From positions 248,001 through 312,000 of the forward strand of contig CDLV01000010.1 in assembly GCA_001244265.2 (NCBI GenBank): a DNA stretch of 64,000 nucleotides. Direction: 5' to 3'. Source of the DNA: Microbotryum violaceum. Lineage: Eukaryota. The notes beneath the pieces are model-generated. The model saw nothing but the letters and a program-made list of their open reading frames with translations, did not search any database and had not been told where the DNA came from. Made by a program: the position numbers and the translations under genes. Each line of letters starts with the position of its first letter. Position 1 is the stretch's first letter. Positions 1-47,217 of the stretch are shown in pieces.

Positions 1-18
1 ACCTCCATCCAACGCACC

Positions 19-1926
19 ATGGCACCCAAACGATTGGCAGATATCGCCGCCCCCGCGCCCGAGGTCGTGGCTGAACCAGTAGCCGAGATCAAGAAGGAGT
101 CGGCCAAGCAGCGCGCCAGGATCGACAAAGGGCTCGCAGAGACTCGCGTCGAGAGCGTGACCGTCGATGGACTGGTACGTTCCTACCACTAGGTGCCTAC
201 GGTGGGCTATTGGACATGCAGGACGATGCAAAGTATATGAGGGTGTCTGCGATGCGGTGCTTGGGTTGCCGTGGGCTGGCCCAGCGTCGTTGTGCTGGCT
301 GCTTCGTGCATGCGCGACCATCGCTGCAGGCTGTCCGCGAAGCTGTTGGCGGTGAGCGTGAGCGGTGCGACACTCGTCACCCGCACAAACACCAAACACA
401 CCAGCGCATGCCTAGTCCGAACCTCTTGCATCACCTCCACCAGTCTAGACGATCCAGATCTGTTGGCCTTGGTTTCCAGAATGCTGACACCCATGCTCCA
501 TCGTACAACTCCTGCGCTCGTCCCCGAATGCGCACCCTACCCACGTCACAGACCTTGATGAAGATCATCAAGCACGCCCGAGAGGCCCACCAGGTCATCC
601 CCGCTCCCCAGGGTACCTCGAACGCGACCGTTTCCTTTTCCCCCGCGGTCGGCCAATTGCTCGGCATCGATTCCGAAGGCTCGCTCCGGGTCAGCAACGC
701 GTTCGCCCTTCCCGCAGGTGCTCTCGGTGGTTCTTCGTCTGACTCGGAGGGTGAGAACCGGGGTTTAAAAGCTGGTCAGTACGAAAAATTTCTCTAGGCG
801 GAATATCCCAGCGTACTAAATAGAACTACTCGACCATGGCTACTCTCAGCGACCAAGTACTCCGCGGCCGTGCTCAGCCGGATGATTGATCTCAACGCCG
901 ACGGATCGATCGTCGGGTTCTACACCTCCACCAACAACGGCCAGACCCTCGCCATCTCCGGCTTCGTCGAGGCCCTCATTGGCGCCCAGATGACCGGTGG
1001 TGGTGTGGGTTCCGGTCTCGGCAAGGCGACGCCCGTCGGACGTGCCGCCGCGACCAAGACGAATCTCGTACCGGGTCAGGGTGCCAAGAACGGGAAGGGA
1101 ATCGCTTTGGTTTACGGTGAGACGCTTTTGAGTAAGCCGGTTGATTCAATTTCCGAAGGCTGATCTTTGTGAACCGCAATTGTCAACAGATGTCGCGAGT
1201 GCCGCACAGGGTCACGTCGGCTTGAAGGCTTACCGATTATCCGCTGCTTTCGTCGAGGCATACCGAGCGGGCAAATTCGACACACAGAGGTGAGCAGCCC
1301 AAGAGTTTACCTGGAATTGATTTTTGAGGATCCTGACCATCTTTTCTTCTCCCCCGTTCGTACTTTGCAGCCTCATCGACCATAAGCTAGTCCCTTCCAA
1401 CATCCTCGAAGAGGTACCCGTGACTGTGCACTCTTCGTCGCTCTTGACCGCCTTCCTATCGACTCTCGTGACTCCTTCCTCCTCCTCAGCGAATGGCGCA
1501 AGTCAATCGTCCTCCGTGCCGCTGGACCCACTGACGACCTACTCGCAACTGTCACTGCCGACCTCTTCCACCTCTTCGAATCCTTCGCCTCTGACGACAC
1601 CTCTGACAGCTTTACTCTCGGCCCTCGAAACGCACCAAGCGCACCTCTCTACGCTCTCGTTCCAATCCCGTCAACTAGGACGCGATCGAGCTCGCTTAGA
1701 ATCGAACCCTGCCGTCGTTCGTCGTCGAATCGAAAACGAACAACGCGCCAAGGAAGGTTTACCCGCTTTAGCTTTATTACCGGAGGAATTGGCTTTACAG
1801 GAACCGAGTAGGTTGGAAACGATGTGCGCTTTGAACGCCGTACAAGGTGCGGTTAAGGTTTTGAATCAGGCGACCGGAACGGGTTTGGTTAGGAGTTATG
1901 GTGCCAAGGCTGGAACGGTGGGTTGA
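19..1926 (+). CDS. EIF3H: Translation initiation factor eIF3 subunit H-like (MPN domain), spliced
   Basis: ATG at 19. The spliced reading gives ...VESVTVDGL|TLMKIIKHARE...VGQLLGID...LRVSNAFALP...IVGFYTST...GIALVYDV...GLKAYRLS...ILEEVPVTVHSSSLL...EPSRLE, which follows the eIF3h pattern. GT-AG introns at about 175-551, 775-848, 1117-1189 and 1290-1370. Confidence 0.8.
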
Positions 1927-1954
1927 GAAGCAAGTCGGGGTTTACTGAAAGGTA

Positions 1955-1957
1955 TGC

Positions 1958-1989
<32 letters not shown>

Positions 1990-1993
1990 GTGT
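1955..1993. repeat. (TG)n microsatellite
   Basis: About 19 TG units with occasional CG, just after the eIF3h stop. Confidence 0.95.
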
Positions 1994-2394
1994 AAAAGAG
2001 TTGTAGGAGGATGAGGGATAGGAGATTTTTCAGGAAGAAGAAGAAAAAACACTCTCTCTTTGATCTAGAGACAACTTATAGAAAGGGTTTTTTCTTGGTG
2101 GCATGAATATTCCTCTCCTTAAAAACTTCTACCAGACATGCATATTGCGATCATCAAAGCCTCACTCCGGCTCTTTTCATCCCAGTGGTGGACTCAAGTT
2201 TTTGAAAGGGGGGATTTAGTCGAGATATTTCATCATTCACGGCACATGAGAGGAGATTAAACCCTTGGTTCGTACAAACATAGAAAAAAAAAACTCGAAA
2301 AAAGATTAAAAGGTGAACCCGCGGTCCCAATTCCTGCGGGGGAAAAAGACAGGGAGGGAAGGGGGGAGGAGACTTCAAGGTGAAAGTGTACCGA

Positions 2395-3367
2395 TTACAA
2401 GAACTGAAGCTTGACCGTTGTCCAAGCCGCTGCACCGACGGTCAACAACCCACTAGAGATGATCATCGGTTTAACCCCAGCCGTACACCTCCACAAAGCG
2501 CCCGTCATCGCTCCCGCTGCCATCGAACCGTAAATGTCGTGCTTGCCACCTCGGTACGAATCCAGGGTCGAGTTGAAACCGTTGTAAATGAGCGCCAACA
2601 CACCGGCGTTGTTACCGGTGAAAGAACCACGACGCGTGACCTGGTTCAAGACATGGTTCCAACGTAATCGGCGCGAGATTTTGCTCGCCGGATTCGCGGT
2701 CGCAGAACCGGCGGCGGCTTCGGGAGGGACGGTGCCTTTGGGAGTGGACGAACCGGCGGCGGCTTGTTGAGCGAATGCGGTCGCTTGAGCACCGATCGAA
2801 GAGGCTGGTGGGACTCCCGCTGCTGATGTTGCTGTCGAGGTGGCGGCGGCTGCGGCAGGGTTGATGGAGCCGATAGGGATCGATTGGCCGGCCTTGGGTA
2901 AGATCGGTCGTCGAAAACCTTCGTACAATCCCCAGATTCCACCTCCGGCTAGACCTGTGCAGCCGACAAGTCAGACGATCAGATTGGAAAAGAGAAAAGA
3001 ATATCAGCATAAGCATGAGGCCACTCTCCTCCCGCGAAAGAGCGAAAGATCGCTCACCACAGAGGTAGGTCGAGCCGGTTCCGTAGCACAATTCGTCACT
3101 CCAACCTCGACTCGGCAAAACGGATTGGCCCCCTTCCACACCGGACAGTTTATCGTCGTCCAAGGCGAGGTAATCGAGGTCTTTGCTGTCGATCAAGCCA
3201 GCGAGGGGGTGCAGTGCTGCGGGGTCGATGTTGGAAGTGGCGCCGAGGATCGAGGAAGCGTTCGGTGCGTCGGCGTAGGCGTAGGCGGACGAGGACGATC
3301 CGGAAAAGGACGAGAAGCGGGCGTTGCCGAGGATGTCCCGAGAGTCGGGCGCTGTTGCTGTCGACAT
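2395..3367 (-). CDS. TIM23: Mitochondrial inner membrane translocase subunit Tim23
   Basis: LHPLAGL...LDYL...LPSRGWSDELCYGTGSTYL, then after one intron (about 2955-3058) LNQVTRRGSFTGNNAGVLALIYNGFNS...RGGKHDIYGSMAAGAMTGALWR. These are Tim17/22/23 family motifs typical of Tim23. Confidence 0.92.
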
Positions 3368-3984
3368 TCTTGGGAGCAGCCGAGGGGCGTGTGGGGAGTA
3401 CTATATGGGGTGGTTGCACAGGGGCGGCGTCCGGCCTTGGGCTTGGACTTGGACTTGGACTTGGGGGCTTTGGGACTCGGGGATTGATCGGGTTAGACTG
3501 GTTAGTCTGAGATTTAGAACGAGCCAGAGGTGGACAGCTATATGGTGTCAGTACCGGATGCTGTAATGAGAAATGGCTGGCTCCGACGGCCAAAAGTATA
3601 GCAGGTGACTCGGACGCAGTGGCCGACACTTTTGGCAGAACCGGCCTCGACGATGCGGTGGTAGGATGCGAGGGGGGATGAGCAGCTACTACTGACCTTG
3701 AAGTATACAAGTGCGGGTGCGAGCTGCGAGCTGCGGGTCAGAAGCCTGCGGTGTGCGGTGGTTTGGTGGCAGGCGAGCGACTCTACGGTGCGACTGTGTG
3801 CGGCGAGCTGCGGCGGGCGCTTGCGAAGCCGCCCAAAGCACTCCCAAAGCGGTGAGCCTGCGCTGGCCTGCGCTGGCTCGAAACGCACGGGCCTCTTTTG
3901 GCTCCCGGCCACCGTTTCCCCGCCAGTCCAGTCCGGTGCGCGATTCACGATCGACTGGACCCGACCGCAGTGGGACCGGTCATC

Positions 3985-6095
3985 ATGTTGGCCGTTGGAT
4001 CAGCCATGTCGGTGCTGCACTCGTTCACACCAGCAGTATCGTCGTCACAGCAGCCGTCGTCGTCGTCGTCGCACCACTCGGGTCCATCTCTCCTCTCGCA
4101 CCCACACCAGGACCAGGCAACAATCTCCTCCCGTACAGCGATCATCACCACCGATACCGAAATCCAACACCATGCCCCAGTGGCTTCCACCTCCACCTCG
4201 TACCTCCAAGCAGACCGAATCACTACATCGACCTTGGCCTCGACCTCGACCGCGACACCGAGCAAGCCACTGCTGATAGTCGGTGGTAAAGTAGTCGCTT
4301 CCCCCACCTCGTTCGGTACGAGTGGTGGTCGGCTCAAAAAGTTCATTTGCCCCGAATGCGGTCAAGGCTACACGAGGCCGACCCGATTGCAGGAGCATCA
4401 ACGCGTCCACTCGGGCGAGGTCAGTCTTCCGAGAGCTGTCAAAGAGGCCGCCGTCATGTCGCTAAGCCCTCCGTTTGTATATCCAGCGACCTTTCAGGTG
4501 CGCAGAATGCCCCTCGACCTTCACTCGCGATTCCCACCTCAGGGCACACGCTCGCATCCATGTCTCCGAGCAGGAGAAGCGCTACGATTGCAACGAGTGC
4601 CACAAAAAATTCTGGACCCATCAGCACCTCAAAAAGCACATCCAGAGCATCCACAAAGGCAAGACCTATGACGTAAGTGAGACGTCCTTGACAAAGCGAA
4701 AACGTTGCTGACGAGTTCTCGCGAACAGTGCTCCCAATGCGACCAATCGTTCCGCAAACATCATCTACTCAGAACGCATATCGCCGAAGTGCATTCACCA
4801 CCGGGTACTTTCCCCTTCATTTGCGATGCCGAAGGATGCGACAAGTCATTCAAGCAAAAGACCCATCTCACCGCTCATCGCAAGACCCACGATCGTGAGT
4901 CCTTTTTTTTACTCGTGCGATCGCCGTGCAGTCATGGGAACGAGCTGATGATCGAAACGACTCGTTTAGCTTCGAGGTATCTCTGTATTCATCGTGATTG
5001 CTCGTCACTAAGTCTGAGTCAACGTCAACACACGACATGGTCGGCACTCCAAAAGCATACCAAGACCGTTCACCCTCCGAGATGTCATTATCCAGAGTGC
5101 GACAACAAGACCTTCACCACCAATCGAGGATTGAGGAATCATATCGCCTCCATTCATGAAGGTTCAACGAGCGCCGAAGATACAGATGCTCCCCACAAGA
5201 CGACCACGTCGAGGTCAAGGAGGAAACGTAAGCGCCGCTCCGGCCGAAAACGGGGCAGCGATGAAGAAGAGCTCGAGGCGCAAGAGACGGAAACGGACGC
5301 CAACGACGGGAACGTGACGAGTGAATGGGAGCAGAGTGAATGGGATCGAGAAGACGATGAACGTGAGGAGAGGATGCTGCTAGATTTCGCAGCCGGTGGA
5401 AAGAAGAAAAGGAGGATCGTACTCGCGCCTGAAGCGGTGTGGAAGTGTACCCATGGAGCATGCAAGAGGCCCTTCAAATCGGTCAGTTTGGGTCCAAGCC
5501 GCTTGCTGCGCTTCTCGCGCAAATGCTGATACTGCCAGATTTCGTCCGTTCTTCTCAGTCCGATGCCTTGGGTCGACACGTCAAGGCGCTTCACTCTATC
5601 GAGCGCTTGGTGCCTATCGTCGAGGTACCTGTACACCGGCCTCGCTCCCAGTCTCGTGGGACCTCGATGGGGCCAGCACCGCCGAAGGAGGACGACTTGG
5701 ATTTCGCACAAGACTCGACGGATCTAGAAGCACTACCTCCTCTTCCCCCTCTTCCCAAGCGAAAGCGCGCGCCCAAGTCTCCGACCGCGATGTCGCTCAT
5801 CGAGTCCATCACCGGATATGGATACGCCCCTGCGGACGAGGACGAGCGTTCGCAAGCCGCTTCGAAGCGCCAGTTCCCTTGCCCTTGGCCCGACATCGCT
5901 AAGCTCGATCACCGAATCATCGTCGACGACATCCTCTGTAGTCCTAACGGCCACATCGTACAGACCGGTAGCTGCGAGTATTGGTTCTCGCGCGTTTATG
6001 ACGTCGAACGACATCTCAGGGGTGCGCACCAGGTCGTGGTCGAGCGAGAGGAATTGGAACAATGGTTCGATGCCGAGTCGGAGGAGGACGGCTGA
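3985..6095 (+). CDS. C2H2 multi-zinc-finger protein, TFIIIA-like
   Basis: Nine C2H2 fingers across spliced exons (CPEC..HQRVH, CAEC..HARIH, CNEC..HIQSIH, CSQC..HIAEVH, CDAEGC..HRKTH, CIHRDC..HTKTVH, CHYPEC..HIASIH, CTHGAC..HVKALH, CPWP...C..HLRGAH), plus a basic NLS-like run and an acidic spacer. Finger content (YTRPTRLQEH, FWTHQHL, TWSALQKH) resembles fungal TFIIIA. Start could be 3985 or 4006. Confidence 0.75.
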
Positions 6096-6488
6096 GATGA
6101 CGAGCAGCTATGCATTGAAGGCGTGATATGGGTTGGATTTCCTTGATGTCGGACTGAAGCTTGAATGGAATGTACCACCGTACCTATTAGTAGGAAGAGT
6201 TGTCGTTCGCTTGCAAGCTCGCTTTCGCTTTCAATTTTTTGCGCCGCCTAGACAGCTAGCTGCTTACCTCGAGCTGAATGCCAACACTTCAAAGTAGCGA
6301 CTATCTGGAGTCTGGAGCCGGTATGCGCTTGAGAGCTCGGACAAATCCCTGAAGCTCGTTAGAGCTGAAGGCTCGTTTCGAAAAAGGGGGGGGGGGGGGG
6401 GGGGTCCAGCCTCGAAAATGATGCTATTCTGAGATTTATTGGACGAAATGGCCGAAATACCCCGCACGTGCGTGGCGGTTAAAGTCCC

Positions 6489-6633
6489 ATAGGAGAGCCC
6501 GATTTCAGCGCCGATTGGTGCGAACAATGCTACCCCGGATAGGAGGACCCTGCCTAAGAGCGCAATAGGGGAGCCCGATTTCAGCGCCGATCGGTTAGAA
6601 CATTGCCCCCGGATAGGAGGACCCCGCCTAAGC
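6489..6633 (+). repeat. Two-copy ~76-bp tandem repeat near the Helitron 5' region
   Basis: ATAGG(A/G)GAGCCCGATTTCAGCGCCGAT...CCCCGGATAGGAGGACCC(T/C)GCCTAAG starts at 6489 and again at 6565. A long G homopolymer lies upstream at about 6386-6404. Confidence 0.9.
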
Positions 6634-9600
6634 GCCCCGATCATTAATTCCCCATGGCCACTGGCCAGTGGCCACCAGCCCGGTTGCTAACCTGCCGCGT
6701 CGGCACACTCAGCACACAGCTTGGACGTCATCAGCCTCCCCGAGTCCCCGCGCCAGAGCCCACTACTAGCGCAGACAAGCGCAAGCTAGCGCACTCAGGC
6801 TGGCCTCCGCTGGCAAGTTGCCACCGCCCGGCCCTCTCCATTCCGTCTCTCTGTACTGCCTTGTTCTAACTTGGGCCGAGTTTCCTCGCATCTCTAAGAC
6901 AGGCTATCACACAACCGCCGTCATGTCACTGCTTTCTGATCTTGTACACCTCCGAGTCCGCACCATCGCCGAGGTCAGCCCACTGCAGTGCACAACGCTC
7001 GAATCTCAGCAACTCAGCAACGTGTTAAGCCTCGCGTCCACCACTAGCGACAGCCGATCCTCCCGCCGCACCGATCAAGCACAGTATGTGTATCCCGGTC
7101 CGCTCTTACGCAACATTCCAGTGTCAGCACTCGATGGTGTGGTTGACAAATGCAGTCTTGGGCAGCTCGTGCGCAGCAGCATCAACTTCAGCATGGATCT
7201 CCTGAAGGAGCTTTTTCGGGCGCATCACGTGGAAGGATACTCCTGGAGGAACCCGCTTGCGAAAGAGCTATCCCTACAAGCGCTCCTTTGGTCGTGCGAT
7301 CCCAACTGTAATGCTTGTTTGAATGGGTATGTTTTCAGAAGGCAACAAGCGGCGAGTCCCGTGACTCCGCCACGTCGTCATTGCTTCTCCGACCACAGAG
7401 CATACGCATCAAGACCTGTTGACGTGCTTCGAGCCTGACTGAACGAGCAAGTCCAGAAGAATCGCGAGAACGTCTCAGCGACTGACTCTAAAGAAACGCT
7501 GCACAGATGTCCACCACTGCATCCCGAACCCGAACAAGAAGATCCCGGTAAAGTGACATCGCATTTTGCGCCAGCATCCGATCAGTTCAAGACCGAGAAC
7601 CGTTCCGAATGAAATGATTACTTCACCGACGCTCGTTCCCGTCTCTTCTGCTGCCTGATGTGTTCCGAGAGAGTCTTTGGGCATAACGTACGATGGGTGC
7701 ATGAAGACGACATCAAGCGTGAGGAATCAGGGATTTGGAGGGAATTAACCAACTCTACACTACGAACGGACCTCCGACTTGCGATTGCAGTGTACAGCTT
7801 GACGGGATGCACTCATCCATCCCCGACGTCTCCGTCGACCGAGCGATTCAATCGATCAGATCGCGTACTCGCCCACGAACAACACGCTTCAGTGCTCACT
7901 CTGCCCAGACTGCTTCAAACGGTCGTTCCTACCACAGGGCCACCGACTAAGCCCCCTCGGTCGTTGAGCAACGGATTTTATCGCGCACTGGATCACGTCT
8001 CCGCTGATGTCCGAGATTGCTTCTCCAACACGAGTCAGCTTGAGCACCTGGTCACTGCAGTGCATGCGCCAGAGCCTACAAGATCGTGTACAAGCGAACT
8101 CGTTTCGATATCCCGAAGGCTCAACAAGAACTTACGCGCGGAAACACCCTCATCTCAAACCAAAACACCGCTTCGTTCACGGATGCACTGCCCATGTCAT
8201 TCGAGGAACTCGCTGACAGTGTGTGCATTCTGCGGAGGGAGCCCCAATCTTGCGAAGCTGGACAAGTGTCGACCCATGATCGTGAAGCAGAGTCGAATCC
8301 AAAAGATGCTCAGATGGTTGATCAACGAAAGCAAGAATTCGGCGCACTCTGCCGTCTCCTTTGATGGCGATTGCACAGCTCGTTCGACGCACTGGTTCCG
8401 GCCCGGGTGCGCTCAACCCGACCTCTCCAGCTTCTACGGCGGTTTCAGCTTCCACTTCGACTTCGGCTTCCGTCTGGGTTGCTCGCCAAGTATCGGATTG
8501 AAAATTCGCGGATGGAGACTGTCTCGTGCCCGACGTAGTTTTGGCGAATTCGGTGACCGCAGAGACAGTGGAAGCAACCTCATCGCTCTTTGAAGGCTAC
8601 GCAGCAACGCACTGCATAACGACTCTGATGAACCAGTATTCGAACACGTCCATGTGCCGCCACCCCCTACCGACGAACCAATTCACTCATGGCTTCTCTT
8701 TAAGAAAGCTCTCCGTTATCTCAACCAGGACAAGCCCACCTATGTCATTCCGACAGGCGACGCCCCTTTGTGGGAACCCTCGGACGAGCTCATGCTCTCA
8801 AAGCTGTGGCCACTGCACACCTCGATCCCAAAGAGAAAGAGGCTCGAATCGCAGCAACGCTGCTCGAAATCGACCCGGATGTTGTGTCTGAAATGATTGA
8901 AGAAATCCAAGGACACGAAAATGTACAGAGCAACAACAGAAGCAGAGAAGCATATCAACCGCATTATGGCGGAATTGCAAAGTCAGAGACAAAATTCACG
9001 GCACAACTGCGCAGATGCTCGACATGAGGAATGAGATCCGCGGATACGTCAACGCGTTCGGTATGTACACCCTCTTCGTCACCGTCAACCCGGCAGATTT
9101 ACACTCACCGTTGCGATGACGAGGTATCTCACAGCCTTAGGCGCATCAAGGACAAGTTTCTGGACCAAGATGATACCGTTTAGGCCAACGACAAAAAGTC
9201 ATCTAATCGTGGGTTGTAACGCTCTTCCCACTGTGAAAGATCGGTGGGGGAATACCGACACTCCATGCCATTTGATTCCCATGTCTCTCAGCGGTGGACA
9301 CGTTCACCACGCCTAGCCACGCCGTCTCGCGCCCAAGTCGCTCCCGGAAGTCCCGAACTCTCAACGTCAACTGAAACCACTTCTTATAGCTGACTTCGGT
9401 GAACGCGCGATGTGAGTCCCTAACGCTGACGACCACATGCAGTGCGAACACAAACTCGTCCAGACGCGGACTGTGACATGGGCGATGTCGAGTGATCTCA
9501 ACTTATGCATTTACACCCCCCGGCTCTGGCTCGATCTCGTTGTCTGCAATGTTCATTAACGTTTGGCACAATTACATGCCTCATTCATGTGAAACGTTCC

Positions 9601-9636
9601 TAGTAATACTAGCCGCTGTCAGGGGTGACTTAATTT

Positions 9637-9737
9637 TTCTGCCAGTGTGCGTAACAGCATTCCCTCCGACTTTTCCGAAGATTTCTAGGTATTAATATAA
9701 TTATGCTGTTAATGAAGTTTACCAAATAAATAAAAAA
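9637..9737 (+). mobile_element. 5'-truncated ~100-bp 3' stub of the same LINE family, with A-rich tail
   Basis: Matches 14868-14972 with 3 transitions before the tail, and ends in AAATAAATAAAAAA. Confidence 0.9.
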
Positions 9738-9803
9738 TAGTCCATCTCAGTTTAGTGACTTGATTTTTAAACCACACCGACGTAACGAAGTAACTCCTAT
9801 TGG

Positions 9804-11237
9804 ATGGACAACAACAACAACACCAACAACGCCAGGCATGCTGCTATACCACCTCTTCGCCCTGACCCTCCCGATCCTCCCGGCCAAGCCCCCGCCACCA
9901 CCACCAAATCATACTCCGCCGCGGTCGGCGCCCGCTCCGCTGCGAAGCACGGAAACGCCACCGCCAACGTCTCGACTGCCGTCGCCGCCCATCCACTGAT
10001 GCACAACATCGAGAATTGTGTCATCATCAACACCCCACCCTCAACCTCGGTCGAGCAAGTCCTCCTCGCGCTTGACAAATACTACCCTGGCCTTACCGGC
10101 GCAATGCCATGCGTCATCAAGGGTCAGCGCGGCCTCCGCTTTCCCAAGGCCGCCGATCTCGACACCCTGGAGGCCAACGGCCTCACTGTTGGCAAGACTC
10201 TGTGCAAAGTCGAGAAGCTGTACAGCTCTACTAGAGGAGGTGTTGTACAATGCACCCTTACGGGCTTTTTCTCCGACCCCGAGGGCCTCTGCCTATTCGA
10301 TGAGCAGATCGCTGCCTATGGCACGGTCCTCCGTCGTCGCACCCAGTACATTGGAAAGACGAAACACATCTCTGGGGTGTACGACTTTATCCTTGCCCTT
10401 AAGGATGTAGATGTTCTGCCCCCTGCCTCACTTTCTATTGCTTGTGACGGCGTCACTGAGCGAATCCCACTGAGGATCACCGGTGGCATGCGCCACTGCG
10501 TCTTCTGCCGTTCCGCGGCTCACGTCCGTAAGGATTGCCCCGTCGCCCCGGCGTGCAAGTCCTGCGCGAGCACCTCGCACGCCACCCAGCACTGCCCGGC
10601 CCGTCATGCGTCGAGCCCCCAGGGACCCCCCACGTCACGTGCCCCGCAAGCCTCCACCGTTACCACCGCCGCCCCCGCCGCCGTGTCCAAGTCGATCTCC
10701 CCGACCTCCGCCCACGACCGCACGACCAAAAAACGTCGAGTGGATCAGGATCTGGCTGCCCAGACTGAAGATCTGTCCAACAGAGCTTAGCCCGACTCTC
10801 TGTCGAAGAATGCCCGCCCCGAGTTCTCCTTCAATTTCCCTTGCAAAACTGCCACTCCTCCTGCCCCCCAGCCTGCCTCCAATCAGGGAATTGCCTACTC
10901 CCTCGTTGAAAAATCCTCCGAGTCCCCCAGCTCAGAGACCACCTCTCCATCCCCAAGCCCTCCTCCGGCCACGCCAAAGTCGATCATAACTCGATCCAAG
11001 TCGATTGCCGCCCTCTCCAAGCCAGCCACTCGTGAAGCCCCTCCCACTGCGCCTGCCCTCGAAGCCTCCGAGCCGAGCCCCGAGCCGTCTTCGCCCACGC
11101 CGTTGCCCTCAGCCGCGCCCAAAGCCCGACCCGATGACGCCGACACCGACGACGAGGCCGACGAAGAAGCCGAAGACCAAGAAGCACCTCCTAAGGACGT
11201 GGAAGACGCTATGGACCAAGATGATGAGCACAACTAA
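9804..11237 (+). pseudogene. LINE ORF1 (gag-like, two CX2CX4HX4C zinc knuckles) with one in-frame TAG
   Basis: CVFCRSAAHVRKDC and CKSCASTSHATQHC. A TAG at 10788-10790 interrupts the frame, which stays open through a Pro/Ser-rich then acidic tail to TAA at 11235-11237, overlapping the ORF2 ATG. Confidence 0.85.
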
Positions 11238-14200
11238 AATCCCAAACGTGTCTTTTGTTGCTGCCAACGTGCAGTCAATCAATGAAGACCGTAAGCGTGC
11301 CTCTCTTTTCTCCAATCTCCGCTCCCATAACGCCGACGTCTTTCTCCTGAGCGAAACTGGCCGACCTTCCCCCGAAAGGGTGGCCCAGTGGACTCAGGAG
11401 TGCCAAGACTTAAAGCTCTCCGCTCTTTTCACTCCTTTCAACAACACTGCCATACTTTGGAAGAGCGACTCCGTGGTCATTACTTTTGATCCCGAGTCGC
11501 CTCCAAACACTCTTCGTGCCTCTTTCTCTTTCCCGGACCGAGTCACCGACGCCACCTTTTGTGTGGGTGATTCAAAAGTCCGGGTTGTATCAATATACGC
11601 GCCTTCCTCCGACAAGCCAGACAAAAAACGCTTCCTCTCACACCTCAGCACCGCCCTCCGACAAGTTGTACGTGACGAACCCTCGCCGCCTGCGCTCCTA
11701 GTCGGGGGGGACTGGAATTGTGTTGAGTCCCAGCCCCTCGATTCGGAGGACCAAAACGGAACCAATTATGGGGGTCAGGAGATGCGCGACCTTGCCACGG
11801 CCAACAATCTTTTCGACGCCTATCGGCTCCATCATCCCAAAGGACGAGCCACGACGAATCGCTCAGCGCTCGGCACGTGCCGTCGCCTTGACCGCATCTA
11901 TGTCTCGCCTGATTGGGTCGACCTCTTCCATGATCACAAAATTTGGGCTCCTGTCCTCAAATCGACGCACTCAATGGTTGTGGCACGGTTCCAAGTGCCG
12001 GGCGCAATCGACATCGGTCCGGGCAAATTCAAGCTGGGTTTGCACGTGATCGAGGGCGACGCGACCTGCAAGTACCTCACCTCCATTGTCCGCACCCTTT
12101 ACAACAAAGCCCTCCTCCAGACGCCCAACGATCCACCAGCAGCTTGGACGTCCACCAAACACCGCCTGCTGCCCGAGCTGCAGGCTCTGGCCCGGACTTT
12201 CGCTCGGTTCCGTCGTGGCGGGTCGGAGCAAGAGAGGGCTGACCACTCGCGCTACGGCGGCGCGGCCCTGCGGTCCCGCCTCGACCCATCTCTGGCGGGT
12301 CCCTCTTCCATCTTCATCCGCCTGCGCAAAGTGCGAGCATCCGACCTGATCCCTTCGCTCACGGTCAACGATGTTGTTCATTCCGACCCTGATTCGATGC
12401 TTGGAGCGGCCAGCGACTACTTCGAGCGGGTCTATGAGGACCGCCCCATCGATGACGCGGCCCTGAAGGCGATCATCGACGGCCTCGCTTCAACTCGCCT
12501 CTCCCCCGCGGACTCACTCAAGCTCGAGGAAGCGTACCCGTTGGAGGAGATGACAAAGGCTCGAGAGGCGTGTAAGTCGAACTCTTCGCCAGGGCCTGAC
12601 GGCCTCCCGGTTGAGTTTTATCGCGCTACGTGGCCGGCCACTGGCCCGATTCTTCGAGACGTCATCAACTCGATCCCCACCGAGGCCCGTCAGCCTGGAC
12701 CTCTTCCCCGCAACACCACCCACATCCATCTCATCCACAAACGCGGCGAGAGGGATCAGCTTTCGAACAAACGCCCCATATCGCTCATCAATGCGGACGA
12801 GCGCATCATCTCGCAAGCCCACAACCAGCGCCTCGCTCCCTTGCTCGAGTCCCTGATCGGCCCAACCCAACGTGGCTTTATTCCGAACCGTTGGATCGGC
12901 ACGAACATCGCTGAGGTCCAATGTCTCATGGACCCTGGACTTCCGGGCTCAACACCCGTGTCTGGCATGCTAGCGGTGATGGACTTTGAAAAGGCTTACG
13001 ATCGTCTTTCCCACCCGTACCTTGATGCAGTCCTCTGCGCCGTTGGCCTCGGCCCCAAAGCCCGCCAATGGTACCGAGCGACCTACACCAACCAATCTGC
13101 CTCGATCTTCCTCAACGGTTGGCTCTCTGCCACTTTCGACATCCTGTCGGGCGTTCGGCAAGGTGATCCTTTGGCTCCGTCTCTCTTCGTCCTGGCGATC
13201 GAAGGTTTTGCCTGTCAGATTCGATTGAGAGTCAAGGGCATCGATATTGCGGGCCTCCAAAACGTTCGCGAACTCCTTTTTGCCGACGACGCTTGCTGCG
13301 CACTCCACAACCTCTCGGACCTCGACCACCTCAATCGGGCGATCGAGCTTTACGAACGGGCAAGTGCCAGCAAGCTCAGCAACGTCAAATCTTTCCTCTA
13401 TCCCCTTGGAGCTTTTCGGGATCGGTCGATCGCCCCAGATCTCGGGACCCGGCGTCTCAGCGATTCGCAGGTTCGCTACCTTGGTATTCAGGTCGGGGTG
13501 GAGATCGCCGAGGATGCGGGCTGGGAAGATGTCAAGGCCTCGACCATCGCTCGGATACGCTCAGTTCCGATGTACGATCTCCCATATGCAGCCAAGTGTT
13601 CGATCATCAACATCTACTGCTACACAAAGATCTTGTACTACAGCCGATTCCTTCCCGCCCCAAGAGCGTCGTCAAGGAGATCGAGGAGGCTGCCATGCTC
13701 GCCTTTCACGGTCGAGCTTCGGATGGTACTCAGCGACGTCCGAAGGTCTCCCGGTCGCGCCTCTGCACCCCTCTCGATCACGGCGGCCTCGGTTTGATTG
13801 ATCTGCCTCGGCGTCTAGCAATCGATCACGCGAAGTGGGTCTTCCAGCTACGGGCCCCGGACGGCTGCTTCACACGCCACCTCTTCGACATCCGCATCCG
13901 CCTCCAGGCACCAAACGAACCAACCCCTTTCACCTTGTCCAGACCGGCCCCCAACCAGCATCGTTGCCCTTGGATTTGGATCTGGTGGGCATACTTTTGC
14001 CATCCTCCCCCAAAGTGGGACCATGCGGTGAGAAAAACGACAAAACTTCTTCCTGCTCGTTGGGTCCGATACTTCGAAGCCTGGGCGTTGGTGACCACGC
14101 TCAATCCCCCGGAACTCTCCAAGAGCCAGAACCTAGAGCAATGGGCGACGCACGTACTCTATTTCCCAGCGGGCCACGGAATACAACTCTCGGTAAACCC

Positions 14201-14798
14201 GACGCTTTTTCGAGGGCCCGATGGCGAGGTGATGACCCCGTCTTCGTTTGTGAACGCGTCCAAACGCCACCAAGTCTTCATCTTTCCCCCTATCTTCCCC
14301 AAGGGACACCAGAAGGTATTCGATCTGCCTGAGCAACGCTGGAACGCTTGGTGGAAGGCTTTGCGCAAGGTTCGCCGGGTTCACTCGGACGCCGAGGATA
14401 CCAGCCACCTTCTCTCCCTGGGGTCCCTCCATCCGGGAAGCCAAGTCGCCTCCCCAACCAGCCCACATCCCAACAATCGATCTACCTCCTGTGTGATGTG
14501 CCTCTCGGAAGCACCCGAGTGCCTGGTTCACCTCGCGGTCGGCTGCCCATTTGCCCGGCGCCTCTGGTCTGCTCTGTCCCCGACCCCCCACCCAGTCTTT
14601 GTGGACTTTGTATGCCCGGTCGTGTCTCGCTCGGAACGTCGACTTGTCGAACTACGAGTCCTCTTCTTTCACTCGATCTGGAAGCTGTGTCGCCGTCGTC
14701 GATTCTCGTCGGATCTTTTGGAACCGATCACCGAAACGGAGTTCGAGGGGCTTCGAGCCTCTATCCAGGAGTCCAAGGGTCGCCTAGTGTCTCTGTAA
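11221..14798 (+). pseudogene. LINE ORF2: AP-like endonuclease, reverse transcriptase and C-terminal CCHC, with one frameshift
   Basis: APE motifs ANVQSIN, FLLSET, SIYAP, GGDWN, RLDRIY, STH. RT motifs PGPDG, RPISLIN, QRGF, DFEKAYD, GVRQGDPLAP, LFADD, YLGI. A frameshift at the C-run 13658-13661 leads into GGLGL...CVMC...ECLVHLAVGCPFARRLW. Confidence 0.92.
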
Positions 14799-15819
14799 GA
14801 CATCAAAGGGGGTTTTAGTGGGTATGGTTGATCCTGGTTCAGGGTCAATGAGTCTTACACTACTGGCTTCTGCCAGTGTGCGTAACAGCATTCCCTCCGA
14901 CTTTTCCGAAGATTTCTAGGTATCAATATAATTATGCTGTTAATGAAGTCTATCAAATAAAAAATAAAAAAACAGTCGGTGTTACTCCGTCAGAGGTTCA
15001 GGGACCCGTCGCCCCCGGAGGGGGTCGCGTTAATATCTCCAGACTAGTCTCTAGATACTGGCAAGCTGGTGTTCCCATACAACCCACCGTCTTTTACAAG
15101 CAGGATCGCTGCTCAGGAAACAATTCAAACGACGCACACACCTGAAACCCCGAGAGCACTCCAACTTGCAAGCGAACTCGGTTTCGTGACCCAATCAACG
15201 GATCGTTCAATAGCTGGCGGCGATCTTTTCATGCTCGAGCGATTCCACGGCTCGAAGCGGACCCGAACAAACATGGAGACGACGCGCATTGAAGAGGGAG
15301 GGGAGGGGAGAGGATGTGCTTGATTCTGAACCCGGATCGTCCGTTGCCCGCGCGGCACCTTTTCTTTTTTCCAACAAGGCCCGGGCGCTCTCTTCGCTGC
15401 GTCGAACATTTTCGCTTCGGGGCAATTCTGACATCACTCAGGCACGGTGGATGCACAAAGACACCCTTCTCGGAGGTTACATGTGCCCATTGGTGACCCC
15501 AGTTCCCTCGAGCCCGACGGCCTGACGGGTCGCCTGGGAGGTGAAAGAGGGAAAACCATCGACTCGGACCTGAGGGCGAGGCAAGGACTCCTGTTTAGCC
15601 AAGGAACCACTCGCTGGCTTAGGTCAGCAGTAGCTTCCTTAGCTCCGCTTCGTTTGATGAGCTCAAAATGAACTGAGTCTAGCTTCGTTTTCGCTATGGG
15701 CAGCTTGAAGGCGTCCAAAGTTGCCTGCCGCAGTCGAGCGCCTGCTTGGGTTGCCCTAGAGGCTAGCGGAGACAAGTTCTGAGACATTCCCCGAAGATCC
15801 GTGTTCCGTCGGAAGGTGG

Positions 15820-33767: not shown

Positions 33768-36072
33768 TCATGCTCCGATGTATTTGAAATCGGCTCTCTT
33801 CGGGAAGGAAGCGTTCCACCAGAAGTGGATCTGCGAGAAGGGGTACAAAGCCGTGCACAAGCCGGTATCTTTGTTGACATACCACGACACGCCACCGTCT
33901 TTCTCCCAGACCTGTTTCGGATGAGCACGGAGAAACCAGTTCGTAAGTCGCTGGACCACTTTCTGACGCATGTGAAAAATTTGCTCAACTGACCTTCTTC
34001 TTCATCTCGTTACGAATTTTCTTATTGTACTGCTCCTGAGCTGCGGGCGTGACCTCGACCGTCGGCGCAGGCTCGCCGTTCGTGCTTGACTTCAGTTGCG
34101 ACAGGATGGGCTTGATGAGTTTTCGCATCATGCTACAGGTCGTAACGGCACGAAACGCCGGCGATTCAGTCTCGATTGCTATACTCTGGAGGGGACAACC
34201 ACGACACATAGCAAGAAGAACTCACGTGATCTGAGCCTCGGAGGTGAAGATAACCGAACTGTGACCCGTGGCGGTGTTGGGGCCCATGAGCCAGAACAAA
34301 TTTGGGAAGTCGGCGACGCAGGTTCCCTGGTAGACCGAGACCTTGTTGTCGCGCAAGCGGTCTTGCAGCGACACACCCTCAGAGTTATAGATCTTGACAG
34401 GGAAAAGATAATCGTGGACCTTAAAGCCGGTGCAGAGCACAATGACGTCGGCTTTGAATTTGCGACCGTTCTTGGTCGTAACCGTGTCGCCCTTGACGCT
34501 TTCGAGCGCATCGTCCTGAACAAGGTCAACCTTGGGGTTGTTAAGTGCGGCATAGTAACCCGAGTCGAATACTCGACGCTTAGCGGCGATATCAAAATCG
34601 GCTGTGGGAGCAAAAGAGGCGCCTGGGTCAGCTCTACTCCAATAAGACGCTGATACGAAAACTCGGATCAAGGCGACTCACGTTCGAGGGCGTCCCAGTA
34701 CTTCTCGGGGGCGACCTCACGAATGTACTTCTTGGTGTCCTTGAGCAAGGAGTCGCGATCCTTGGCGCCGCGCTTCACATCCGAAACCCTGAACATGCGC
34801 TCCATGATGAGGAAGATGATGGTTCGCAAGACCCAAGCGAACCCGGGAATGTACTTCTTGGCCCAATGAACGAGGGTATTGTCGGGTGCGAGAGGGCGAC
34901 GGATGATCGATTGCCTTGAACGGGCGATCTGAGTCAGACTTTTGACCTCGTCGGCGATTTCGGGTACGATCTTCAAAAATCCACCGGTCAGGATAGATCA
35001 GTTGGGGTGAAGCTGTACGAGACGAGCAGATTGGAAGGTTCACCTGAGCGGCGGAGCAACCGTTTCCGACCATGACAACGTCCTTGTTCTTCAGGGAAAC
35101 GTCAAAATTCCACTGAGCCGAGTGGAAAACATCTCCGTTGAAGTCGCGCACGTCGAAACTGGGGTCGTTGGGGTTCGCAAGACCTCCGAGGGCCGAAATG
35201 AGAATGTTGCACGTCCGTATCTTGGTCTCGCCCGTCTTGAGATCCTTGACTTGGATGGTCCACAGCCCAGTCTGGCGAGAGTGGCGTGCTTCGAGAACCA
35301 TGTGGTAGAAAGCGATGTTGTTAACCTCGAACTTCTTCTGCACCGAGTGCAAGTCTGGGAGGATGGGATTGGTAAGGAGATCAGTACGATGGGGGCACAC
35401 ATGTAGAATGTCAACGAGCCAGTTCGCAGAACTCACATTCGAGAATTTGAGGCTGGGCCGCCCATTGCGTCCACACATCCTCCGGTGCTGCGAACGAGAA
35501 GGAGTAAAGGGACAGAGGAATATCTGTATGCACAAATTTGGGGCCGTGTGACATATATACACAAGTCAGCTGAGATTCTCCGAAACTCGGCCCTCGAGTG
35601 AATCGCATCGCCGGCCGATCGGAAATCTCCGTCGTCATCGAGACACGGTCGTCCCGAATCTCGAATTATGAACCTCCCACACCAGGGGGCTGCACGCGAA
35701 AAAACGAGCTCAAAAGGACCTACCACATGCAGCACCAGGGTATCGGTTATGATTCCAGGTTCCACCGATATCGGCTGATTTTTCATAGCAAAATACGTCG
35801 GTAAAGCCGAGCTTGCGCTTAAGCTGAATATTGGCGGCTAAGGATGAAAGGAGGGGTTAGCTATGATGAACATTGGGTGCAAGGCTTCAATTGACTCACC
35901 TAATCCAGAAAGTCCGGCACCCAAGATGATGCTGTTGTTTGCGAGCAGATGAAGGCAAACTTAGTAATTGGCAACGATTGAGTGCGAGCACCACGGTTAC
36001 GACGTACGCTCCGTAGTGGGACTTGGTATCACGAGCCGAGACCTGGGGTAAAGTGTTAGGGGCAGAAGACAT
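33768..36072 (-). CDS. Flavin-containing monooxygenase, type I Baeyer-Villiger-like
   Basis: IILGAGLSGL, GGTWNHNRYPGAACDIP, fingerprint FNGDVFHSAQW (FxGxxxHxxxW), VGNGCSAAQ, LCTGF, FPNLFWLMGPNT, SWY. Confidence 0.92.
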
Positions 36073-36965
36073 GTTGGGAGAGACGGACGAAAGTCGAAAT
36101 GTGGCAAGAGGGAGAAAGAAAGACGAAGAGAGCTGGGCGATCGGTGCAACGCTCTTTAAGTTAAAAGCTTAAGCGCCGGGATTGCGAGTAGTGAAGCGGA
36201 TTCCCGCTGCTGCCGGACGCGGGCGCCGGGCGTGTGAACATGCGAGCAAGCTTTCCCTCGGAGTTGGAATCGGCGACCTCAGGTGGCCGGCCGTCGACTT
36301 CGCGCGTGCGGCCGGGCAACGGCCAATTGACACTCACGTGATCTGCCAGGTCGGTGACCCAGTATCCCATTCGTTCCGGCACTCGGCTTCTTTTAAGCAC
36401 GAGCTCGCTTGTCAAGCAGCCTTCGACTCACCTAGACGATGCCCTTTCAGGAGCTGTCTGTTTTGCCCCCCCCCTGCACTAATATCGCCGTGGGGCCACC
36501 GGCGGAGCCGGCCTCCGGGGCTCAGACTGAAACAGCATCAATACCATTGACGTTCTTTGACTCGACAGTTGATTTTAGTAGATAGGGGATATCAGGGACG
36601 TGGAGACAAGCGCTCTTTCAGCTAATTAAACCTCCCAAGATCAGAGTGGGATATTTATTTTTGGCACGACTTTGCAGGCGTTCGGGCCGCCTGCCCAGCC
36701 TGCCCAGCGCGCAGGCGGCCATCACGGGCAGGGGCGCACAAGTGTTTCCTGACTTTCGAGCTGACTTTCCGGCTGTCCAGCCGCTTGGCCGAATTCTGGG
36801 CAAGCCCGGGCAAGCGGTCCGTGCCCCTGCACCCCGCCCATTGAGCCCGCGCGAACTCGAGAATACACACGACTCACTGCACCACCAGCTGCAGCACCCA
36901 TCGAACCGGGAATCCTTGCCTTGTCGCTGTTCTCCACCCCGACAACAACCAGGCAAAAGAGGATC

Positions 36966-38615
36966 ATGGCTGACGCCAGCACGCGACGCTCGGCGGTCGG
37001 TACGACGTCATCATCCGATGCTACTACTGGAACGCGGCGGGCATCACTCCGAGCTTCCACGATGTCAAACTCGTCCACGTCTGCATCAGAGAAATGTTCT
37101 AAGCAAGACGGACCCGATCTGAGGCCGACCAAGCCTGACTCCATCCGAGCCCATCATCTTCATTCCGTCAAGAGCGGGCCTGCCACGAAAAGTAGTTGTA
37201 CCGGATCGAGTTTCAAAGGCTCGTCGAAGCGAAAGCGTGTCAAGCATGGAGACGATCCCACGAAGACATCACCAGAGCGGACCAAATCAAGAAGAGAAGC
37301 GAAAAGGGACACTGCGGGCGGCCAGCGACCGCGATCGCCCGATCAGGAGACAAGTGGGGCAGCATCCTCCTCGGCGTGTGCGTTCACCTCAGGGAAAGCC
37401 CACAGCGGAGGCGGAAGGCATGCTCACATCGGCGAGAAATTTCAGCCTGGCGATGGTCAGAGGGACTATGAGCTCAGTAAGCCACTGCTCACTCCATTCA
37501 CCGACATTGAGCAAATGCTAATGGCACTCGGGACAATGTCACGTGCAGCTGAGCCCGAACCATGGCGTGATGACGAAAACTGCTTGCACTTCGACGACCA
37601 GCCTACCTTCCTACCGACGCTTTGTCCAGAGTTAATCCAGCTTTTTCGTATCTCACTTCGCGGGCGGTTCTGAACTAATCCTCTTCGGTCTCTGATCCAT
37701 GGTGCGAGCAGAGAAATTCTCCGACAAGGCTCCTTCTGTGGTGGTTACTTTCGTCCGATCAAGTCCAAGAAGTCGGGCCGCTCCTACAAGAATGATTGGA
37801 AAGACCTACCCGCAGGTATACACCTCGCGTTCTGGGAGGTTTGATTATCTCCCGTTGGCCTGATCCGCAAGTTGTTCATCCCCCCGTAGAATGGTACGCT
37901 GGTCTCGATCTTGGAACAGTGAGTTCTCCTTTGCGCGGTGTCGCTCAAAGCCCGAGTCCAACGCGAGACTCACTCTCGCACACTCAAATCCTAGCACTTA
38001 ACACACCCTGATCCACCAATACCAAGCCTGAACCGATGGAAGACCAAAGTCGGACAGACTTACGAAGCCTGGGAAGATCAAGGTTGGATCGAACGTGGGT
38101 CTCGCCGGCTGCTGAGAATCGCTCGGTCCAAGTGCTGAGTTACCGCCCGGTTCCGACACAGCCGAACATGACTGTAGAGGCTGGTTTCAATGGTATTGTC
38201 GGTTCTTTCGTGGTCGACGCTGCGCCGATGATGATCGTCAGATTGGGCGATGGGAGCGATTGGCGGGCGAGAAAGGTGGGAGGTGGCGACGGATCTATTA
38301 CGGGAAGCACCACAAGGCCGGCGCGAGTGAGCCGCCTTTTAGGTGTGAAATCTTGGATAATCACACGTTGAGCTATATCACCGTACTTTCATCGGCAGAC
38401 GAGATTGAACCAGCTGAAGAAACCATTTCCAAGGGGATTAGGCAGACTCTTAACCATTGGGTACGCACTTATACCCTCGGATCGTCAGAAGGGGATGACT
38501 GACTTTCCAGAGTTCAACCCAATAGGCATATGAACCTAGTACAGATCATCTTATGCGATACTTGGAGGAGAAGGGGGAAGATGTGGCCAACAATGAGGGC
38601 GATCTAGCGCAATGA
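36966..38615 (+). CDS. Conserved hypothetical Trp/Arg-rich protein with disordered N-terminus
   Basis: Spliced reading: FLPTLCP|EEILRQGSFCGGYFRPI...DWKDLP|EWYAGLD...NRWKTKVGQTYEAWEDQGWI...DCRGWFQWYCRFFRGRRCADDDRQIGRW...IRQTLNHW|AYE. Confidence 0.75.
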
Positions 38616-38714
38616 CAGAGAGTAGCTCGGCAGCTGGCGAGGGAATACGGAGAGCGGTGCGGTGTGTCCGCCTCCTCAAGAGCAAAGCATCTCTCGCGCA
38701 GGTATTCTGTCCTG

Positions 38715-39797
38715 TCATTTCAACTCGATCAAATCGACAGCCTTTGACTTGCACGCGGCTTCTAAGCGAGTCCACCCTTGTCTCCTTCTGATACAAATCT
38801 TGCGGAATTGCGTGCGTGGCCACCCCACTTCGAGCACAAAGGCCATGACTCTCGGATCGAATCCGTCCTCTTCGCCCATTGAGGTATCCGCCAATTCGAC
38901 CGGTGGCTTCTGGAGGTTGCCCAAGAGCTCGATAACATCGACCGCGACTCCTGTGGCATTGATCTCTAGCCTCTCCAGCGAAGGCAAATTATGGGCAAAG
39001 CCTTCGATAACCCCTTTGGCGGAGGTGGTTAGACGCAGGCTCCGTACGGGCCATCCTAGCCAGGCTACTGGTCTCAACGGGGCTGCACGAGGATGTGGGT
39101 ATTCAAAGTCGAGCACGCGAAGCGAGTCGGCGTACATCGTCGAGGCGAAGAGCCAATAGTAGTGTTCGGCCATGAAAGACGGGCAGTCTCGAACGGAGAT
39201 GGAGACAAGTTTGAATGACGGAATTCTACCCATGGTTGCATTTGGTGTTGGTGTAGATGCTCGGATGTGACGCATGACGAGTGTAGATAAGTTGGGAAGA
39301 CACGGGAGGATGGACGCGAGTGCGTGTAACTGGAATTGGTCCTCGATTGCGGGTCGACCGATGACGGTCAGAGTTTGCAAGTTCGAGCTTGAAAGCAATG
39401 GTATGAGTTGGGTGAGGTGTTGTCGACGAAAGGAAGTGAAGGCGAGTTCGCCGAGGTGCAAGTGTTTGAGGGTCGGGCCAAGCTTTTGGAGGAGCGTGAT
39501 CAAGTGTTGCTCCGTCACGAAATCCGCGGTCCTGGGTGGTGCGGTTGTTCGACCTTTCTTTGGGTCGCTCGGGCTCTTGAGGGCTGCTGGGCTCCGAGAT
39601 GTTTCCGCTTGTGCACGTGTGAGGGTTATAGAACGAACCGGTGTTATTCCGTATGCTTCTGGTTGGCTCTTCCCGCGCGATGTAAAGTCCGAGTTCAAAG
39701 TCACGTGATGAATTGGGTCTTGTGCCGGGAGCTCGGCGCGGCGTAGCAAGTCGTCAATCAAGATGAAAGCCTCAAAGGGGAGCATGGTTCCCAGCAT
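38715..39797 (-). CDS. Hypothetical protein with LRR/RNI-like repeats, apparently single exon
   Basis: Long open frame with repeated LxxLxL patterns (LKHLHL, LQTLTV, LPNLSTLVM, LRVLDF, LPSLERLEI). Start could be 39797 or 39785. Confidence 0.7.
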   Translation of the reverse strand: MLGTMLPFEAFILIDDLLRRAELPAQDPIHHVTLNSDFTSRGKSQPEAYGITPVRSITLTRAQAETSRSPAALKSPSDPKKGRTTAPPRTADFVTEQHLITLLQKLGPTLKHLHLGELAFTSFRRQHLTQLIPLLSSSNLQTLTVIGRPAIEDQFQLHALASILPCLPNLSTLVMRHIRASTPTPNATMGRIPSFKLVSISVRDCPSFMAEHYYWLFASTMYADSLRVLDFEYPHPRAAPLRPVAWLGWPVRSLRLTTSAKGVIEGFAHNLPSLERLEINATGVAVDVIELLGNLQKPPVELADTSMGEEDGFDPRVMAFVLEVGWPRTQFRKICIRRRQGWTRLEAACKSKAVDLIELK

Positions 39798-39815
39798 GAA
39801 TGCGCGGGAGGGACA

Positions 39816-42076: not shown

Positions 42077-42218
42077 GCCATTCTTTTTAGTGTCAATACG
42101 TAGCAAGGCAGTGTTACAAGCACAGACAAAAAGTGTATCTCAATTAGGAATGTTAGCACCTTAAGAAGATACGTCCTCAACAGCTTCTTGCAGAGGTTGT
42201 GCTCCCACGCGATGTCAA

Positions 42219-46490: not shown

Positions 46491-47045
<555 letters not shown>

Positions 47046-47078
47046 TCAGCAGCGCCGGTCCGTTGTTTATCGGCCTCA

Positions 47079-47217
47079 ACCTCGACCTAGGCTGGGCACG
47101 GCCTCGATTAGTAGGCCTTCGAACGAGCGTAACGGGGAGACGCCTCGACCTAGGCCTGCGCCGCCTAACTCGAGGCCATCGTCAGCGCGCGCGGCCAGGG
47201 CATGCCTCGAGTTAGGG
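47079..47217. promoter_or_regulatory. Repeated GCCTCGAnnTAGG motif in the bidirectional H4/H3 promoter
   Basis: Five copies at 47079, 47101 (longer spacer), 47142, 47163 (reverse orientation) and 47204. Confidence 0.6.

Follow-up and report, generated by a model that had tools for sequence, protein, structure and literature searches.

What has placed two copies of one long interspersed nuclear element (LINE) family 31 bp apart, each behind nearly the same short sequence, near the 3′ end of a Helitron-derived repeat? The question is raised by a 64-kb stretch of the Microbotryum violaceum genome (assembly GCA_001244265.2, contig CDLV01000010.1, positions 248,001–312,000; the whole stretch is called the window below, and its first letter is position 1). 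Here, a 5′-truncated LINE copy (the stub) is followed by a spacer of 31 nucleotides (nt) and then by a full-size, 5.2-kb element on the + strand (9769/9792–14972). We propose, with a probability of about 0.55, that this Microbotryum LINE of the L1 group has a preferred but non-exclusive insertion site in the subterminal region at the 3′ end of a truncated Helitron family, where it inserts in the sense orientation of the Helitron. Judging from the junctions, we think that the preferred site has the form ...GTGACTTR(ATTTTT) on the left and YAGTC(G)G on the right of the insertion point.

Contigs (Logan) of four public runs (X1, X2, X4 and X8) were aligned to positions 9000–15600 of the window, from which they showed about 120 differences across 6.6 kb (40 itemised and 81 more). 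Depth is given relative to the single-copy flank, contig depth not being a copy number, and the bounds of exact repeats drawn from contigs rest on 31-letter words. The stub and the full element are indeed copies of one family (96 of 101 positions identical), as the initial annotation had claimed, and both 5′ junctions lie directly after GTGACTTRATTTTT, the 14-mers at the two junctions being identical at 13 of 14 positions. When the 64 kb were searched in both orientations for GTGACTTRATTTTT with at most two mismatches, two matches only were returned, both at the junctions. In shuffled sequence the mean was 0.48 matches, and two or more matches anywhere occurred in 7 of 100 shuffles; we judge the pair non-random because the end of each 14-mer coincides precisely with a 5′ junction. 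When the two upstream flanks were aligned locally (in a slice without the last two T), the observed score was reached in 11 of 5000 shuffles. The start of the stub is ambiguous by 2–3 nt, TTC being common to stub and flank. On the 3′ side, the tails are followed by TAGTC at 9738 (stub) and CAGTC at 14973 (full element), that is, by YAGTC in both cases, again as first described.

Another copy of the same LINE was found at about single-copy depth in the contigs of two of the four runs (X1 and X4). It follows the window up to 9639, where 15 different letters (ATCCTGGAAAAAGGA) intervene before the match resumes at 9792, so that a full-length LINE follows sequence of the unit 1 type (Table 1) without stub or spacer. 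This copy removes the concern, raised at the outset, that the 100-bp stub might be a constant part of the element's own 5′ end. Three different sequences thus come after the last T of the motif: the LINE from about 14870 in the stub, 23 unrelated nt in the full element and 15 others in the third copy. The common left side and the variable right side argue that the motif belongs to the target and not to the element. If the genome measures tens of Mb and contains a few hundred LINE copies, chance would not, by a calculation of our own, be expected to bring three insertions into one stretch of about 30 bp of some ten repeat copies. Chance is not a reasonable explanation for three junctions that share one motif in a repeat of so few copies.

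LINE-free copies of the host repeat were also present. In three of the four runs (X1, X2 and X4), three contigs each match the window from 14973 onward, and before this point they carry host sequence (...CTTAGTAATACTAGC...TGT) that reads CACGTTCTTAGTAATACTAGCTGACGTTGT in X1 or, in X2 and X4, a variant that ends in TCACACTGT. In these upstream parts, the first 21 letters correspond to window positions 9594–9614, and the first part of unit 1 (TAGC...TGTCAG) is shared as well. Because the LINE-free copies rejoin exactly at 14973, with neither target duplication nor loss on that side, the 3′ junction of the full element is a clean Helitron breakpoint. Contigs of single-copy depth join 9569/9570 to 14985 in all four runs and 9593 to 14983 in three.

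The initial annotation had further read the site, with both inserts removed, as three degenerate tandem units. This picture depends almost entirely on the 14-mer common to units 1 and 2. Outside it the similarity of the units is slight, and the third stretch (CAGTCGGTGTTA...) is not significantly similar to the other two, its scores being matched by 1017 and 2324 of 5000 shuffles. Tandem Repeats Finder (TRF) detected no tandem array at the junctions, besides the A-rich tail and a triplet repeat in the first open reading frame (ORF1). The lack of a long target duplication for the full element was upheld, the comparison of the spacer with the downstream flank being matched by 2324 of 5000 shuffles. 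We also considered the three CAG...GTG...ACT stretches as a target duplication and rejected them, the copies being too different both by eye and in the shuffle test.

How could such insertions arise? Under the proposed preference, the bottom strand would be nicked just 5′ of ...GACTR, the complement of YAGTC, and would there prime reverse transcription, while the top strand would be cut at or beside the same place, after the T-run. The outcome would be blunt or near-blunt insertions with variable untemplated or switched nucleotides at the 5′ junction, and the two occupied sites would represent two similar neighbouring stretches of this Helitron copy. One thought is that the ATTTTT at the 5′ junctions might be copied from the A-rich tail in a minimal form of twin priming.

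Several observations weigh against this preference or limit how far it can reach. The proposed target in its unoccupied form was not observed among the LINE-free contigs shown. The initial annotation had asked whether LINE-free copies run from GTGACTTRATTTTT straight into YAGTC. The contigs shown do not; they end instead in ...TAGCTGACGTTGT or ...TAGCTCACACTGT before CAGTCGG, that is, in TGACGTTGT or TCACACTGT. The LINE-free copies shown contain one unit-like stretch, without the 31-bp tandem and without the ATTTTT of the motif, and they carry TGACGTTGT where the occupied ones carry TGACTTRATTTTT. It would fit these observations if variants bearing the motif were the ones hit, if the T-run was added at insertion, or if the second unit arrived with the LINE. 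The host of the third copy, moreover, is presumably this Helitron, judging from the sequence to its left. Other copies of the family look different: upstream of one that breaks off at 14620 stands ...CGATCGTTTATCGTTTTTTGA, with a T-run but not GTGACTT, and at the break of another, at 14690, the motif is missing. The motif is thus present in three of the five upstream flanks visible at LINE 5′ junctions or breaks, a tiny and non-random sample, and 24 of 366 loose contig ends were shown, so that the junctions are not a random sample either.

Depth bears on the same point. The LINE body has a depth of about 21–30 times single copy, and the last 220 nt reach about 156–308 times in all four runs, a rise of about tenfold; the family is therefore a 5′-truncating one, which is typical LINE behaviour. 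The surplus of 3′ ends, about tenfold, belongs to the LINE subfamily of the window. By depth, these 3′ ends far outnumber the copies of this Helitron. Even with all excess depth of bin 14967–15187 assigned to 14973–14994, at most 7–23% of the LINE 3′ ends can precede this flank (own arithmetic), and most copies of the family must lie outside it. Of the homing to a Helitron site that had been suggested for this LINE, a preferred site is thus supported by three junctions, while exclusive homing is not supported, given the depth and the breaks without a motif.

Could the arrangement have come about in a single event? In that case the stub, the 31-nt spacer and the full LINE would have been copied together from a read-through transcript of a tandem source locus, 5′-truncated at 9637, and inserted once between ...ATTTTT and CAGTCGG. 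A second unit need not then have existed beforehand, in keeping with the single unit-like stretch in front of CAGTCGG in LINE-free copies; the spacer and the downstream flank are not significantly similar; and a 5′ untranslated region (UTR) of 12–35 nt makes transcription started upstream plausible. However, the problem is merely moved in this way, as the source would need two LINE copies with a motif-bearing unit between them. With 5 differences in 101 positions, the stub and the full copy are not recent sisters, though a source tandem could hold old copies. Read-through beyond the A-rich tail is also demanded, and in none of the contigs listed does the order stub, spacer, LINE recur elsewhere. 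We therefore consider such an origin unlikely. Alternatively, the units of 29–31 nt may be a diverged duplication produced when the stub inserted, the full LINE having come in later at the end of the second copy, which would keep the preference and dispense with a prior tandem. The duplication of Xenopus Tx1L is about 23 bp long. Host copies free of the LINE have a single unit, and the stub does lie between two units in direct orientation, as this account would have it. The units nevertheless differ at about 9 of 31 positions by eye, mostly by transversions together with insertions and deletions, against 95% identity between the stub and the full copy, and clear similarity is confined to the 14-mer. 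Nor are the differences of the C-to-T type described for Microbotryum repeats (PMC4469406). A long duplication is in our view quite improbable, and, like the single event, it would still require targeting.

An account without any target specificity would be that GTGACTTRATTTTT, with some preceding bases, is the 5′ terminus of the element itself and that the stub is internally deleted. The motif does precede all three junctions at which the 5′ side of the LINE is visible beside it, and its T-run part is absent from LINE-free host copies. A true terminus should, however, continue into homologous sequence, and here unrelated segments of 23 nt and 15–16 nt separate the motif from the body that begins at 9792. 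The deletion in the stub would have to begin at exactly the same nucleotide, the preceding bases (TAGC...TGTCAG) are common to LINE-free host copies, and the depth of bin 9442–9662 leaves, by rough arithmetic of our own, little room for a motif as numerous as the LINE. This explanation thus appears to have a low probability. It is hardly credible that two unrelated LINE insertions simply clustered by chance in a transposon-rich spot. Transposons do often nest, and a Microbotryum intermedium gene model (P0121, described below) shows a LINE and a Helitron meeting in another arrangement. Against this stand the 14-mer, 13/14 identical, that ends exactly at both junctions, the third copy with the same left side, and the rest of the window, which looks like ordinary genes where sampled and in which no other copy of the LINE was found. 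We return to the preferred site in the Helitron and to the two elements that meet there, the features of which are collected in Table 1.

Table 1. Features of the Helitron remnant and of the LINE copies inserted in it (window coordinates)
Feature	Position	Strand	Evidence
Degenerate 5′ part of the Helitron RepHel gene, cut off at 9116	7613–9116	+	DUF6570 and Helitron_like_N
Non-coding 3′ part of the same repeat family	9117–9609	+	Depth equal to that 5′ of 9116
Unit 1, host sequence that ends in GTGACTTAATTTTT (9625–9638), directly 5′ of the stub	9610–9638	+	Read in the sequence
Stub, 5′-truncated copy of the last 101 nt of the LINE with A-rich tail	9637–9737	+	96/101 identical to 14868–14968, ungapped (95% by BLAST)
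Unit 2, 31-nt spacer, TAGTCC... ending in GTGACTTGATTTTT (9755–9768)	9738–9768	+	Read in the sequence
23 nt at the 5′ junction, extra junction nucleotides or variable 5′ end	9769–9791	+	Not conserved in another full-length copy (X1 and X4 contigs)
LINE body	9792–14972	+	ORF1 9804–10790, ORF2, 3′ UTR, A-rich tail 14955–14972 (TRF)
ORF2	about 11221–13653, then in another frame 13659–14798	+	Domains and tblastn of Microbotryum homologues
Host repeat resumed, to its probable 3′ end	14973–15047	+	CAGTCGGTG..., hairpin, CTAG; LINE-free contigs match from 14973

What is the host repeat? The Helitron_like_N match in 8901–9116 scored 32.8 bits against a cut-off of 28.9 (E 1e-7) and covers profile positions 71–127 of 191, whereas the DUF6570 match in 7613–8590 (E 6e-4) lies below the Pfam cut-off; the frames of 7613–9116 are broken. 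Helitron_like_N marks the sequence as a remnant of the gene for the Rep/helicase protein of Helitrons, with the helicase part absent from the host repeat, and the ORFs of 9117–9609 gave no Pfam match. Depth was about 8–17 times single copy over 9000–9441 and about 7–13 times over 9442–9662 in all four runs, and we put the host repeat at roughly 8–17 copies. The Helitron derivation stated in the initial annotation was supported by a domain above the cut-off in a sequence that is repeated. Because depth is the same on both sides of 9116, where Helitron_like_N stops, the amplified unit is a deletion derivative of a Helitron, truncated and non-autonomous. Downstream of the LINE, a contig of single-copy depth starts at 14995 in all four runs, so the exact repeat reaches at least 15024. 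A G+C hairpin (CCCCCGGAGGGGG) lies at 15012–15024 and CTAG at 15044–15047, followed by T (15048). The fold of the whole stretch with the hairpin was not significant (z −0.48). The hairpin and the CTAG before T would fit a Helitron 3′ end, where a G+C hairpin stands a few bases ahead of a final CTRR and insertion is before T; the end is bracketed rather than exact, and the LINE lies about 50–75 bp inside this end in the same orientation. For M. lychnidis-dioicae, Perlin et al. (2015, PMC4469406) give 392 LINE and 373 Helitron copies. At 6489–6632, some 1 kb 5′ of the Helitron remnant, we noted two adjacent copies of about 70 nt that are 88.6% identical.

In the LINE itself, ORF1 encodes two CX2CX4HX4C zinc knuckles, and no Pfam family was found in it. 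In ORF2, the 935-amino-acid (aa) frame matched Exo_endo_phos at residues 92–311 (E 6e-9) and the reverse transcriptase (RT) family RVT_1 at 582–835 (E 1e-21), both above the Pfam cut-offs. An endonuclease followed by an RT in a single ORF is the arrangement of LINEs with an apurinic/apyrimidinic-type endonuclease (APE), and terminal repeats are absent, the 3′ tail is A-rich and 5′-truncated copies exist, as in LINEs generally. The second frame of ORF2 stops at 14796–14798. Its 543-aa C-terminal frame contains no Pfam family, RNase H included, as in the L1 group. A Cys/His motif, CX2CX10HX4C, can be read near the ORF2 C-terminus, and its C, C, H and C columns are invariant in an alignment of 13 relatives. 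In tblastn, Microbotryum homologues follow frame 1 to 13653 and frame 3 from 13659. Because all contigs of the four runs show an extra C after 13657, the LINE copy of the window is frameshifted; with this 1-nt deletion in ORF2, the full copy is dead. Between the ORF1 stop and the likely start of ORF2 (MMSTTK, 11221), the 430 nt of 10791–11220 are open in the ORF2 frame, proline-rich and contain short tandem repeats of 12–15 nt.

Ahead of the ORF1 ATG (9804) the 5′ UTR measures at most 12–35 nt, so that transcription possibly relies on upstream sequence. We speculate, by analogy with what is discussed for R2 and Tx1-Mar/SINEU in PMC4494074, that transcription of the LINE may depend on the sequence into which it has inserted. 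In an extension that we find doubtful, a LINE without 5′ UTR or promoter of its own, homing in sense orientation to the Helitron 3′ site, would be transcribed by read-through from the Helitron and would thus be a parasite of a rolling-circle transposon.

Variants of the family were seen in the contigs. Several match the LINE to about 14732–14736 and then continue in related but different sequence for 56–163 nt, which points to LINE subfamilies that differ in the ORF2 end and the 3′ UTR. In X1, X2 and X8 (and partly in X4), a variant runs past 14695 into AGAAATATCTTTTTTTCCTAG, and another contig has TTTTCCTAGTCGGTCAAAGATTCACAGGGT before 14690; if the two share one locus, they would represent a short insert with a 6-nt duplication within the end of ORF2. 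The insert at 14690–14695 would include a T-run followed by TAGTCGGT, which resembles the motif beside the LINE of the window in an unoccupied state.

As to the affinities of the LINE, its closest protein relatives come from the gene models of Microbotryum silenes-dioicae (97–98% identity), M. intermedium and M. saponariae, so that the DNA would be that of an anther-smut fungus. Outside the genus they are followed by proteins of 38–53% identity and then by plant L1-type proteins with zf-RVT (25–29%). The closest solved structures to the RT (residues 462–849 of the 935-aa frame) are those of human L1 ORF2p (E 5e-37), R2 reaching 2e-12. We tentatively file the LINE, on these similarities, in the L1 group. 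No named Tx1 sequence is among the protein-search matches listed, and Tx1 is described as an animal clade by Kojima (2015, PMC4494074). HMMER against representative proteins gave 44,501 matches with E up to 0.001, and of the 150 listed, none of 10 whose names were looked up was useful for clade assignment. In the ESM Atlas only generic endonuclease/RT clusters were found. A search for ORF2 in viral contigs returned five pattern matches with no relative among them, and a 42-nt stretch of the LINE 3′ end had no match in metagenome contigs. The alignment of 13 proteins matched 41 loci in metagenome contigs, several of them with names of ocean surveys; we rejected these loci as a source of family flanks, being too distant at 23–35% identity.

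Is a LINE with a preferred place inside a DNA transposon new? The literature found describes transposon-targeting LINEs as animal Tx1 elements in cut-and-paste and long terminal repeat transposons. According to Kojima (2015, PMC4494074), Tx1L of Xenopus laevis is inserted in Tx1D, a piggyBac-type DNA transposon, crocodilian Tx1-Mar families target Mariner-N4_AMi, and Tx1-9_AMi is found in Harbinger transposons, at about 300 bp from their 5′ end. A family is there treated as target-specific when more than 20% of its flanks carry the sequence, and dependence on transcription of the flanking transposon is discussed. The present case resembles Tx1L in that an APE-type LINE of the L1/Tx1 group occupies one position within a family of DNA transposons, presumably owing to a sequence-specific endonuclease. 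It differs in its host, which is a Helitron and not a cut-and-paste element, in the organism, a fungus, in a preference that seems partial and in the lack of a long duplication for the full copy. With Tx1-Mar and Tx1-9_AMi it would share a tendency, short of a strict rule, to occupy a fixed position in a transposon family. Those cases are based on hundreds of flanks, whereas here there are three junctions, and target class and kingdom differ. The R2 and R1 elements of ribosomal DNA (PMC3747384 and PMC4494074) are likewise site-specific; their 5′ junctions vary and they are transcribed together with the target, a style that the near-absent 5′ UTR here fits. Unlike our LINE, R2 has a restriction-like endonuclease and a single-copy-type target in a gene array, and the ORF2 studied here is far closer to L1 ORF2p. 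Human L1 (ORF2p structures 8uw3, 9k6g, 8sxt and others) shares the APE endonuclease, the A-rich tail, the frequent 5′ truncation and the closest RT. Its target duplications start with A's beside the tail. In contrast, the tail here adjoins YAGTC, and the T-run is on the 5′ side. The L1 nick site is given as TTTTT/AA in the abstract of PMC8565326.

It thus seems that the LINE would work like the known families with a favoured position in a DNA transposon, from which the fungal host and the Helitron target set it apart. In open-access full text exclusive of supplements, we found neither a LINE described as targeting Helitrons nor a target-specific LINE described in Microbotryum. Were the doubtful extension above correct, with homing to the Helitron and read-through from it, this would be the earliest known case of a target-specific APE-type LINE in fungi and of a LINE with a Helitron as its target. 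A fungal case with such a target would broaden both the taxonomic and the target range of these elements. Target-specific LINEs illustrate how the specificity of an APE endonuclease can shift to a long recognition site, and they also attract study as natural tools for inserting genes at chosen sites; the site proposed here, of about 20 bp, would be compact and testable in endonuclease assays. The build-up of transposons on the mating-type chromosomes of Microbotryum is an active subject, and a LINE that follows Helitrons would link the dynamics of two transposon classes.

The M. intermedium gene model mentioned above (P0121, 765 aa) fuses a LINE ORF1 at its N-terminus, 57% identical to ORF1 of the window, to Helitron_like_N and PIF1 helicase domains, and is the one among 18 long ORF1 relatives to carry these domains. 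We rejected it as an instance of the same junction: its order is opposite to that of the window, with ORF1 upstream of the Helitron coding sequence. Outside the Helitron–LINE island, the parts of the window sampled (1321–5526 and 34720–51265) contain ordinary-looking genes, with domain matches to an eIF3h C-terminal domain (weak), C2H2 zinc fingers, an Alg9-like mannosyltransferase, a stretch like lysine/ornithine monooxygenase and DUF1771, and the Helitron–LINE pair looks to be surrounded by a gene-rich region.

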